Shown: piece by piece, positions 39,143-41,614 of the stretch | Layout: each line of letters opens with the position of its first letter | Position numbering within the stretch: the stretch's first letter is position 1 | Assembly (NCBI GenBank): GCA_014161675.1 | Contig: GCA_014161675.1_4760.1 | DNA: 64,000 nt | Source: a phage | Direction: 5' to 3' (one strand) | The notes under the pieces: generated by a model | Told to the model about the DNA's origin: nothing | Databases searched by the model: none | What the model saw: only the letters and a program-made list of their open reading frames with translations | Program-made: the position numbers and the translations under genes

Positions 39143-39262
39143 ACTTCACCTCATACATTCATAAACACAACAACGAATAGGACAGTAACAGTTATTAAAG
39201 CCATTTTCAACCCCATATTCATAATATTTTCCTCATAAGGTAACGCCCTGTTGATGTGTGCC

Positions 39263-39290
39263 ATTATAAGCCACTAAATCACACTGTCAA
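39263..39290 (-). promoter_or_regulatory. Sigma70-type promoter (minus strand) downstream of hoc terminator
   Basis: Minus-strand TTGACA, 16-nt spacer, TATAAT. Confidence 0.55.
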
Positions 39291-39300
39291 GCACTAAAAA

Positions 39301-39327
39301 CAAAAAAGCCACCCCGAAGGATGGCTG
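39301..39327 (-). terminator. Rho-independent terminator (minus strand) after hoc
   Basis: Minus-strand AGCCATCC-uucg-GGGUGGCU followed by U-run; near-copy of the terminators at 38152 and 14359. Confidence 0.65.
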
Positions 39328-39337
39328 ATAGATTTCA

Positions 39338-40552
39338 TTAAGCAGGATGCGTTTCACGAATGCGTAGAACTCGATCTAACGTCTCTCGGTCCAGTTTATG
39401 TAACTCTTTGGACTGATACATGAAACCATTGCGAGATTCCATGCAAGTGCAATCACTATATTTTTCTTCCGCTGCCGCGATTGTCTCCAGATCTTTGGCG
39501 TACTTGCTGGTTGAATAAACTTCTCGGTTACGCCACTCTAACCCAGCCTCATTGAATTTAACAATCTCGTCAAATACCCACCATCCAATGTAGATAAATG
39601 AAGTTTTGCGCCACGGGATCGGGTGTACGTAACGAAACATTTTAACAACTTCCATTGAACATTTTCTACTTGTACTTGTTGCAACTTCTACTGTTTCATC
39701 TTCGATCTGTTGATATAGTTTAGCAACACACCAGAATTTGGCTGTGTCATCGTAAGTAGCACTCTCTTTGAACAGATGACCGTCTGGAGTGATAGAAAAT
39801 CCTTCCAGTGCTTCGCCAACCTCACTACCGATCAGAGTCGGTGACGGTTGCCCTTCGCGCTGCAAATACCAGTTATGTTTGATCGTCAATTCAGGCATAC
39901 CGCTAGAATCGCCTACAATGTTCTCTGACACAACATAATTAAGTAAGATCTCATTACCTAGTGCCACGGTCTTTGATTCCACCACATCCTGATCTACGTT
40001 CATTGTTGCCAGCATGATTTTAGTCGATGCGCTAGCGGCTGAATCTTCCGACTCACCCCACACTTTTACAGTATACACGCCGTTTTTATCTGCTGTAAAT
40101 TCTTGGATCGTAATATCCTTTTTTGTGTCTATAACGTCATCGCCCTTACTCCAACTATAATGTAGTTCATAGTTGTCTGATGGAGTCTTCCCACCCGAAA
40201 ATTTTACTGTTGCATGTAATTCTACGTTTGTTTGTGATGATACGTAGAAATGCTGCGGTTCGGTGATATTTACGATTAATTCAGCTTCTTCCATGAGGAA
40301 AACTTCAGATTCTACTGATGTCATCGTATCGGTATCCTGTACCGTTACTTTATAGCTACCCGCATTTTCACTTGTTGCGTCTGCTACAGTTAGCGTAGCT
40401 GTGCTATTTTCATGCGGTTGGTCGTCTTTTGTCCATGTATATGTCAAATTGCTGGGTAATGGTTCGTCACCCGCTACAGTCGCCGTTAAGGTGAAACCAT
40501 CTCCAGCAAGAAAACATCTTTTGTCAGATTTAATTGATACTGTGAAAGTCAT
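39338..40552 (-). CDS. hoc: Outer capsid decoration protein Hoc (Ig-like domains + capsid-binding C-terminus)
   Basis: Starts MTFTV as T4 Hoc; repeated Ig-like segments (TYTWTKDD...AGSYKVTV); C-terminal YVHPIPWR...IYIGWWV.DEI...ESRNG matches T4 Hoc capsid-binding region. Confidence 0.85.
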   Translation of the reverse strand: MTFTVSIKSDKRCFLAGDGFTLTATVAGDEPLPSNLTYTWTKDDQPHENSTATLTVADATSENAGSYKVTVQDTDTMTSVESEVFLMEEAELIVNITEPQHFYVSSQTNVELHATVKFSGGKTPSDNYELHYSWSKGDDVIDTKKDITIQEFTADKNGVYTVKVWGESEDSAASASTKIMLATMNVDQDVVESKTVALGNEILLNYVVSENIVGDSSGMPELTIKHNWYLQREGQPSPTLIGSEVGEALEGFSITPDGHLFKESATYDDTAKFWCVAKLYQQIEDETVEVATSTSRKCSMEVVKMFRYVHPIPWRKTSFIYIGWWVFDEIVKFNEAGLEWRNREVYSTSKYAKDLETIAAAEEKYSDCTCMESRNGFMYQSKELHKLDRETLDRVLRIRETHPA

Positions 40553-40721
40553 ATAAAGCCACTCCCATAGAAAATCCGAATTTAATTAATTGAAATAGTT
40601 GATTGCCATCAACCAGATAACCATTGCGAGATTCCAATACATGAGTATTAGAATAGTGATGCAACGAGGCCGAAATAGTATCGATCTCGTCTGGGTATTT
40701 GTTCTGTTTGATGTAATACAT
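40530..40721 (-). CDS. Small ORF resembling the Hoc C-terminal segment (partial duplication)
   Basis: KYPDEIDTISASLHHYSNTHVLESRNGYL parallels Hoc KYAKDLETIAAAEEKYSDCTCMESRNGFM; shares an exact 18-nt DNA match AACCATTGCGAGATTCCA with the hoc 3' end. Confidence 0.35.
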   Translation of the reverse strand: MYYIKQNKYPDEIDTISASLHHYSNTHVLESRNGYLVDGNQLFQLIKFGFSMGVALYDFHSIN

Positions 40722-40817
40722 TGATTTTGTTAGACATGTAGTATCCTCTTTTTAATTGCATAACGGAACTACAATTAAAATTATAACAAATATTTCACAA
40801 CTTTTATCACCCAAAAA

Positions 40818-41543
40818 TTACTTGAGTGTGTGGAATTGGCTGTGTTTAGTCTCTCGCACCTTGACAGACCCATCGCGTTTGATATAATAGATCAGTGACT
40901 TGAGGGTGTCGTGTACATACGCGTGCGGGAAACGCTCTGGATACTTCTTCCAATCTGGAGTATTAACGATCCAGTCGAAAATCCACCACGGGCAGGAGTA
41001 GTAACCACGACCGCCACCGATCAAGCAAATGGTCGGACGGAAGCCAGTAAGATCGCAAAATGAATCAGTGTCATGTGCTGGGGAACGATGCTCTGCTTCG
41101 TTAGAGAAAATGTTGGCTACCGGAGATTCCACTTTAACTTCCGGTGCTTCTTCAACATCTGACTTAACTTCTTCGACCACTGGTTCAACTGCCGGAGATT
41201 CTTCTTTTGTTTCTTCAATGACGATCTCAGGTTCTTTCATTGCTTCAACCAGAGACGGATCAACTTCGTCGAATACCACTTTATCATCTGCGGTGTCTGC
41301 TGCCAGAATAAGATCGTTAATACTGGTTCCTTCTGCCGGAGTTTCTTCTTCCATTTCGGAAGCCAGTTTAGTTAATTCTGTTTCTACGAACTCGATCATG
41401 TTCTCTAGCGAGAGCGTCTTTTTGACCTTTATATCAAATTGTTTTGCGTAGTCCGCTAATTCTGTTTTAGCGGCTTTCTGTGATTCTTTGTCGTCGGACG
41501 CCGCAATAGCGCGGAGTTCTTCGAAATATTCTTTATCAAACAT
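40818..41543 (-). CDS. inh: Putative inhibitor of prohead protease (Inh-like), acidic internal protein
   Basis: 241 aa acidic protein immediately upstream of hoc on the same strand, as in T4. Confidence 0.55.
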   Translation of the reverse strand: MFDKEYFEELRAIAASDDKESQKAAKTELADYAKQFDIKVKKTLSLENMIEFVETELTKLASEMEEETPAEGTSINDLILAADTADDKVVFDEVDPSLVEAMKEPEIVIEETKEESPAVEPVVEEVKSDVEEAPEVKVESPVANIFSNEAEHRSPAHDTDSFCDLTGFRPTICLIGGGRGYYSCPWWIFDWIVNTPDWKKYPERFPHAYVHDTLKSLIYYIKRDGSVKVRETKHSQFHTLK

Positions 41544-41570
41544 GTTATTCTCCTGATTGGGGGGTGTTTG

Positions 41571-41578
41571 TATAAATA
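41571..41578 (+). promoter_or_regulatory. T4-type late promoter (TATAAATA) for uvsW
   Basis: Exact TATAAATA ~37 nt upstream of uvsW ATG. Confidence 0.55.
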
Positions 41579-41614
41579 TTTGTATACTGTATTTATTGAG
41601 TGAGGCTATTCGCT

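Follow-up and report, generated by a model that had tools for sequence, protein, structure and literature searches.

A small ORF between inh and hoc of an RB49-like phage is very probably the relic of a deleted second hoc gene

Results

A 63-aa ORF between inh and hoc resembles the C-terminal end of Hoc

The DNA analysed here, referred to as the window, is a stretch of 64 kb from an RB49-like T4 relative of the genus Krischvirus, and 59 phage records match its positions 39200-41600 at 90-99% identity. On the minus strand of this region, inh is followed by an ORF of 63 aa and then by hoc, as listed below.

From 41600, plus strand: uvsW.
40818..41543, minus strand: inh, the upstream neighbour.
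40530..40721, minus strand: the 63-aa ORF, homologue of RB49p168.2, phrog_32100 (translation, relatives, PHROGs).
40619..40636, plus strand: an 18-nt exact repeat with its partner at 39424-39441, covering codons of (L/M)ESRNG(Y/F).
39338..40552, minus strand: the resident hoc gene (ORF translation, record matches, Pfam, PHROGs).

The ORF, placed between inh and hoc on the same strand as both, was found in the window with the translation quoted for it in the preliminary description. As hoc starts at 40552 and the ORF ends at 40530, the two overlap by 23 nt in different frames, in agreement with the overlap of about 20 nt given earlier. The proposed parallel between the ORF and the C-terminal capsid-binding segment of Hoc also held, with a similarity above that expected by chance: residues 7-45 of the ORF aligned with residues 349-387 of the resident Hoc with 14 of 39 positions identical (36% amino-acid identity) and 26 of 39 similar (E 2e-8, BLASTP, single comparison), and the ORF also aligned with positions 1107-1145 of the 1150 of phrog_1149.

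In T4 Hoc, the C-terminal domain that binds the capsid comprises residues 281-376 (Fokine et al. 2023, PMC10385173). The ORF holds the final 36 of the approximately 96 residues of this domain, with the ESRNG loop among them. Pfam detected Ig and PKD matches in the resident Hoc, in which the YVHPIPWRR motif is also present, and no match in the 63-aa ORF, from which the string of Ig-like domains is absent. In a search of 5.8 billion proteins only two clusters were recovered, one with the RB49-type ORF and one with part of a long Hoc that is intact, and both belong to this group of phages.

An intact long hoc gene lies at the same locus in relatives

The comparison with related genomes that had been suggested in the preliminary description revealed an intact second hoc gene at the same locus. 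When the 63-aa ORF was used as a tblastn query, near-identical copies were found in the RB49 group, and a large gene of Shigella phage JK32 contained a match of 75% identity. In this phage, two hoc genes lie in tandem between inh and gene 24.3, the first of 846 aa directly after inh (accession QEG05481.1, annotated as head outer capsid protein) and the second of 408 aa. Intact second hoc genes of 846-847 aa between inh and hoc were identified in JK32, Brandy, SSG23, SFHK24, UPWr_E1 and G2248 and in the IMG/VR contig L006, which was one of two useful loci from a scan of IMG/VR with Inh and has the closest intact long hoc. The ordinary hoc of Krischviruses (404-408 aa) is located downstream of the long gene.

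The long Hoc has six Ig_3 stretches in Pfam and room for about eight Ig-like domains, with Ig and PKD matches in the JK32 protein, and its C-terminus is a complete Hoc capsid-binding domain (YVHPIPWRR...ESRNGYLVDGTQLF). The intact long Hoc proteins are only 63-71% identical to each other overall. In the intact genomes a terminator-like hairpin (GCCGNCCTTCGGGNCGGC then TTTT; positions 3631-3648 of L004) separates the two hoc genes.

The window retains both ends of the long gene

When the intact 847-aa long Hoc of L006 was aligned to the window by tblastn, its residues 1-12 matched positions 40737-40702 (12/12 identical) and its residues 812-847 matched positions 40700-40593 (33/36 identical). 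The 63-aa ORF itself aligned with the JK32 long Hoc with 33 of 39 residues identical (E 4e-22, BLASTP). At the nucleotide level, 7 of 111 positions of the 3' piece differ from the 3' end of the intact long hoc of the nearest relatives (Brandy, L006), giving four codon changes, of which three alter an amino acid and one is the lost stop. The following features of the interval, all on the minus strand, can be recognized from these alignments.

40744..40750, minus strand: AAGAGGA, the Shine-Dalgarno sequence belonging to the former long hoc, whose ATG it precedes by 6 nt (read directly; same sequence and position in the intact genes).
40702..40737, minus strand: probable 5' relic, the first 12 codons of long hoc (MSNKINVLHQTE) (tblastn, alignments).
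40648..40737, minus strand: native-start ORF of 29 aa, consisting of MSNKINVLHQTE and then the out-of-frame EQIPRRDRYYFGLVASLF, with its stop at 40650-40648 (translation; phrog_19377 match).
40590..40701, minus strand: probable 3' relic, consisting of a stray base, the last 36 codons of long hoc (KYPDEIDTISASLHHYSNTHVLESRNGYLVDGNQLF) and the former stop, now CAA, at 40592-40590 (tblastn, BLASTP, alignment).
40553..40589, minus strand: leftover spacer between long hoc and hoc, with the hoc Shine-Dalgarno sequence GGGAG at 40566-40562 (spacer alignment).

The two relic pieces are offset by 37 nt, which corresponds to a +1 frame, and reading from the native start is disrupted, ending in an unrelated tail after 29 aa (54 aa in the Phi1 type described below); like the 63-aa ORF, the 29-aa ORF had no match in Pfam. 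The window lacks about 2.4 kb of the long gene, with no Ig-like domain left and the capsid-binding domain cut back by its first 60%. The arginine of the HPIPWR motif, equivalent to T4 R300 in the loop between strands 1 and 2, falls in this deleted part and is absent from the ORF. The region is 2408 nt shorter than in L006, a shortfall that the alignment would account for by 2312 + 9 + 75 nt in the gene and 12 nt in the downstream hairpin. The former stop codon of long hoc is TAA in all the intact genes and CAA in all deletion types. The spacer that follows is 12 nt shorter than in the intact genomes and has lost the terminator-like hairpin, none being found on the minus strand of the window spacer.

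The 63-aa ORF is thus a chance ORF, which reads the 3' relic in its old frame from an ATG inside the 5' relic: it exists only because this ATG, in another frame, gives access to that old frame and reading continues into hoc past the lost stop. The ATG, at 40721, is located 22 nt past the sole Shine-Dalgarno sequence, in a context that reads AAT GTA in the window vs AAT ATT, with no ATG, in JK32. As a consequence of the read-through, the last 20 residues of the ORF are spacer plus out-of-frame hoc sequence, and its length follows the 5' sequence of hoc, being 63 aa in the window and 65 aa in RB49.

Taken as a whole, these alignments argue strongly for the region of the 63-aa ORF being the relic of a second, long hoc gene that was deleted, a pseudogene which would have no role on the capsid and would now form the inh-hoc spacer; we consider this reading very probable.

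Two successive deletions would account for the relic types

The deletion is carried by 53 records, all with the same 3' junction, which was covered at an identity of at least 97.3%. Thirteen of the 53 keep 75 nt more and aligned in two pieces; this Phi1 type comprises Phi1, GEC-3S, ECD7, MIZ4, MIZ5, Makalu 1-3 and G37-3, RefSeq duplicates being included in the count. The extra 75 nt are further 5' codons of long hoc (MSNKINVLHQTEDPVYGSVGHPLLLKIVVSTADFIAE); compared with L006, the Phi1 5' relic has 3 differences in 93 nt, and Phi1 ORF168.1 is identical to residues 1-34 of the UPWr_E1 long Hoc at 32 of 34 positions. The 3' junction, in which CAGAA is joined to CAAATACCC, is common to both deletion types, and CAGAA flanks the 75 nt on both sides.

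The simplest history, which rests on parsimony as to the order of events, would place the Phi1 type first and the short type second. A first internal deletion of around 2.3 kb would have joined codon 40 to the last 36 codons, one base out of frame, to give the Phi1 type. From this form, the loss of a further 75 nt between the two CAGAA repeats would then have produced the short type (12 + 36 codons) present in the window. Later, the stop TAA would have changed to CAA and the downstream terminator-like hairpin would have lost 12 nt.

Base-by-base reading was carried out on 20 deletion-type genomes, the window included, out of the 53 deletion-bearing records, and the change of TAA to CAA and the loss of the hairpin were found in 20 out of 20. 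The shared junction, the TAA to CAA change and the hairpin loss together indicate a single origin of the deletion group. A neighbour-joining tree of resident hoc places G2248 and UPWr_E1 on its two deepest branches and JK32, SSG23, Brandy and L006 in the sister clade of the deletion group, and all six have the long gene. Therefore, the presence of two hoc genes is ancestral and the deletion is derived. The inh tree was mosaic, which is to be expected of these recombining phages.

The opposite polarity, an insertion in JK32-type phages instead of a deletion in the others, was rejected: the two relic ends are parts of a single coherent protein with several domains, they are out of frame with each other, the long gene is present in the outgroups, and the relic retains only the final 40% of a domain which the long gene has in full.

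The relic shows a neutral substitution pattern

Where the ORF does not overlap hoc, the 20 deletion-type genomes gave 11 non-synonymous changes, including a nonsense change, and three synonymous ones. The non-synonymous fraction, 0.786, compares with 0.794 expected without selection, although 14 polymorphisms give little power against weak constraint. The pattern of the relic's capsid-binding segment is thus apparently that of neutral change and not that of purifying selection. When changes were sorted by codon position, the 3' relic gave 2:7:3 vs 1:0:8 for the 39 homologous codons of resident hoc across these genomes (Fisher p = 0.0075). Over the last 36 codons, the long hoc genes that are intact vary at up to 21 of 111 nt without a single amino-acid change.

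Damage to the 63-aa frame was found in several lineages. In the Phi1 type, TAA and TAG are present in this frame just upstream of QNKYPDE, so that the ATG start of the ORF is unusable there (13 records). In MIZ6, codon 6 is changed from CAG to TAG (Q6 to stop). The ESRNG sequence is altered in two of the 20 genomes, to EYRNG in JSE and to ESRND in ELT4, and intact in the other 18. A programmed frameshift from the native start into the ESRNG frame was considered and rejected, with no slippery motif, a Phi1-type frame that is closed until 6 nt before the junction and no selective signature.

Possible expression of the relic and alternative roles

The relic would be transcribed within an inh-hoc messenger, because the minus strand of the inh-hoc interval has no T4-type late promoter motif (TATAAATA) and no remaining terminator. 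On this messenger, translation would begin at the strong ribosome-binding site that is retained and yield the 29-aa out-of-frame peptide, which would have no function; this native-start ORF is most likely the product that is translated. The 63-aa ORF would be translated poorly or not at all, and it would have no action on the capsid. No known RNA element was detected in the spacer by Rfam at an E of 1 or less.

A different role for the same DNA would be that of a leader serving the expression of hoc, in which coding is dead and the relic is kept upstream of hoc with an upstream ORF translated from the retained strong ribosome-binding site, the loss of the hairpin and the gain of an extended -10 element (TGTTATAAT at 40788-40780) having followed the loss of the long gene. 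The Shine-Dalgarno sequence and its ATG are kept, and the hairpin is absent, in 20 of 20 deletion-type genomes; all 20 have TATAAT where JK32, Brandy, SSG23, UPWr_E1 and L006 have TATGTT and G2248 has TATGAT. The lack of the late-promoter motif from the inh-hoc interval on this strand and the four synonymous changes among the eight polymorphisms of the native-start ORF are also consistent with a leader. However, four of eight is not significant, the Shine-Dalgarno region varies in ECD7 and G37-3 and has 1-nt indels in Makalu2 and Skers, and the shared features are equally well explained by descent from one deletion event. This role is considered unlikely.

The preliminary description had also put forward a free-standing capsid-binding peptide, that is, a mini-Hoc whose ESRNG loop binds the centre of the gp23 hexamer and competes with Hoc or modulates its decoration. 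In T4, the ESRNG loop occupies the centre of the capsomer, where it touches all six gp23 subunits, and binding is affected by mutations in it (PMC10385173). The loop and both its flanking strands are retained in the ORF, whose frame is open in most of the short-type genomes examined, with ESRNG itself intact in 18 of 20. The AlphaFold model, of modest confidence (pLDDT 67.8, pTM 0.39), has a helix, a beta-hairpin around ESRNG and a second, long helix; the latter is made of the read-through tail, and the model is uninformative on binding. Against such a peptide, only 36 of about 96 domain residues are left, with strands 1 and 2, two of the three helices and the conserved arginine (T4 R300) missing, and the last 20 residues are read-through that varies with the hoc sequence. 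The ORF has no Shine-Dalgarno sequence of its own and is out of frame with the native start, which is the start that has one; its own start is unusable in the 13 Phi1-type records, a nonsense codon interrupts it in MIZ6, ESRNG is mutated in JSE and ELT4 and the substitutions are at a neutral ratio. The proposal of a free-standing peptide was thus left without support, and we regard it as very improbable.

The ESRNG loop of the ORF may have some residual capsid binding. A variant limited to the short-type lineage, to which the window, RB49 and others belong, and in which the chance ATG at 40721 and the lost stop would have made a new small gene, its ESRNG-hairpin product filling some hexamer centres and tuning the decoration by full-length Hoc, appears remoter still.

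The 18-nt repeat reflects conserved codons

The exact 18-nt stretch reported to be common to the ORF and the hoc 3' end was confirmed. Exactly two copies of the 18-mer AACCATTGCGAGATTCCA are present in the 64-kb window (39424-39441 and 40619-40636), and no match to it appeared in any of 100 dinucleotide-preserving shuffles. The codons it spans, (T)TG GAA TCT CGC AAT GGT T, are those of the conserved ESRNG loop with flanking bases. In all intact long hoc genes the ESRNG codons are GAA TCT CGT AAT/AAC GGT, and in nearly all resident hoc genes GAA TCT CGC AAT GGT; in the intact two-gene phages the stretch is 17/18 identical between long and resident hoc, with one synonymous base (CGT vs CGC) different. 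The 18-nt identity is weaker evidence than it appears, because the repeat covers conserved ESRNG codons that are near-identical in the two-gene relatives. On the codon alignment, the exact 18-mer amounts to a conserved motif for which both genes use the same codons, together with a single synonymous change from T to C in the lineage of the relic, although a very short gene conversion may lie behind the identity.

The footprint of a rearrangement that had been recognized at this site stands, whereas an origin by partial duplication of the resident gene's 3' end does not. A recent duplication of this kind, inserted upstream of hoc, would explain the exact repeat and the 36% amino-acid identity to the resident C-terminus, but it is refuted by the nucleotide distances (49 of 111 nt, in 24 of 37 codons, from the resident 3' segment vs 7 of 111 from the long hoc of relatives), by the restriction of the 18-mer to ESRNG codons that are 17/18 identical in intact two-gene phages as well, and by the 5' relic, which matches the N-terminus of long Hoc and is not explained by a 3'-end copy, so that its probability is close to nil. 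With 49 of 111 nt different, recent copying from the resident hoc does not account for the relic.

Discussion

The relic of a deleted long hoc gene, as the locus is most probably to be read, shares with the long Hoc of other Krischviruses its location between inh and hoc, the ribosome-binding site and the first 12 codons, and the last 36 codons are identical at 33 of 36 positions. It differs in the lack of about 2.4 kb, in the pieces being out of frame and in the absence of the stop codon. Compared with the capsid-binding domain of T4 Hoc, the relic encodes the counterpart of the last helix, strand 3, the ESRNG loop and strand 4, but lacks strands 1 and 2, two helices, the conserved arginine, the Ig-like fibre and a signal of selection.

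Two Hoc-like proteins are known in Serratia phage Muldoon and in Enterobacter phage PG7 (PMC10385173). The ancestral state deduced here likewise has two decoration proteins, with a shared capsid-binding domain and different display parts, whereas in the window a single gene of the two survives. The ancestor of the RB49 group would accordingly have had two tandem Hoc proteins, a three-Ig form and an about-eight-Ig form, and the capsid-binding domain common to both forms implies one binding site for them. JK32-type phages could serve as a natural system for how two decoration proteins share capsid sites. The crystal structure of RB49 Hoc is the reference for this protein, and the long Hoc appears to have been lost in 53 of the 59 sequenced records, RB49 among them. 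The known picture of Hoc action is unaltered by the relic, the value of which lies in annotation and in the history of Hoc in the RB49 group.

Both small ORFs have been described before (Arbiol et al. 2010, PMC2839356): ORF168.2 as a newly added ORF of RB49, and ORFan168.1, close to hoc, as an ORFan unique to Phi1. They are the same DNA as described here, read in two frames, and were there of unknown function or an ORFan; we found no statement in the literature that the small ORFs of RB49 and Phi1 are remains of a long hoc. The PHROG families phrog_32100 and phrog_19377, both of unknown function, also match the C- and N-terminal ends, respectively, of the JK32 long Hoc. RB49 ORF168.2, Phi1 ORFan168.1, JSE gp174, phrog_32100 and phrog_19377 would thus be the two ends of one deleted hoc gene, for which a pseudogene label is due.

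Existing ORF calls at the relic vary between genomes, in line with an ORF that is not preserved as one unit. The ESRNG-frame ORF is called in RB49, TB34, Sf20 and ELT4, the 29-aa native-start ORF in JSE (EpJSE_00174), a 54-aa native-start ORF in Phi1, ECD7 and Makalu and a 76-aa hybrid in Skers, and the others have no call.

Putative transcription signals around the hoc genes

A hairpin resembling a terminator was found between the two hoc genes of JK32 (locus L004), an intact phage that carries both the long and the short paralogue:

L004 3631-3648: terminator-like hairpin, 7 bp (6 of them GC) followed by TTTT, between long hoc and short hoc

The same structure was present in the intact loci L013, L014, L016 and L006, the last being an IMG/VR contig. 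As the hairpin stands between them, the long and short paralogues of intact genomes may differ in expression level. In every deletion type examined, where only the relic of the long gene is left, a 12-nt loss destroys this hairpin.

In the window, two promoter-like sequences were located close to the inh end of the relic:

40780-40788, minus strand: extended -10 element (TGTTATAAT), in the spacer between inh and the relic
40861-40888, plus strand: perfect sigma-70 consensus (TTGACA, 16 nt, TATAAT, with TG preceding the -10), within the 3' end of inh

The extended -10 element was present in all deletion-type genomes examined (20/20), and the same position reads TGTTATGTT in 5 intact two-hoc genomes and TGTTATGAT in G2248. 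It could be a promoter gained once the long gene was gone, or merely a shared polymorphism. The sigma-70 consensus is oriented antisense to inh, toward uvsW, and is kept in JK32 (L004 958-931).

Downstream of the resident hoc gene, a second hairpin was followed by another promoter sequence:

39326-39307, minus strand: GC-rich hairpin and T run, immediately 3' of hoc
39290-39263, minus strand: perfect promoter sequence (TTGACA, 16 nt, TATAAT), downstream of this hairpin

An equivalent pair is found in JK32 (L004 4908-4971). Promoter-early stem-loop (PeSL) cassettes have been linked to hoc and to modular shuffling (Arbiol et al. 2010, PMC2839356), and the whole 39263-39326 segment on the minus strand looks like one such cassette.

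Apparent gene splits and a putative endonuclease ORF in relatives

The resident hoc of G37-3 (L021 2004-3214) is broken into two ORFs, a first one of 109 aa and a second part, and both inh and uvsW are split in TB34 (L002 3120-3844). Such splits reflect either genuine gene disruption or errors in sequencing; were the hoc split genuine, G37-3 would lack a functional Hoc. In G5211, an ORF adjoining or within uvsW (L024 131-862) putatively encodes a group I intron homing endonuclease; it was not found in the window or in the other relatives examined.

Small reading frames

The 29-aa ORF read from the native start of the long hoc gene (40648-40737, minus strand) showed an excess of synonymous polymorphisms, 4/8 against about 21% expected, with too few sites for a test (p about 0.1). 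Its frame would be the one actually read by ribosomes.

Another family of very short proteins, phrog_21694 (PHROGs; 66-aa profile, 'Hoc-like head decoration'), matches the Hoc C-terminal segment, with E values of 0.024 for the 63-aa ORF of the relic and 0.0014 for the resident Hoc. Among other T4-like phages, small ORFs called from C-terminal fragments of Hoc may likewise recur as an artefact of annotation.
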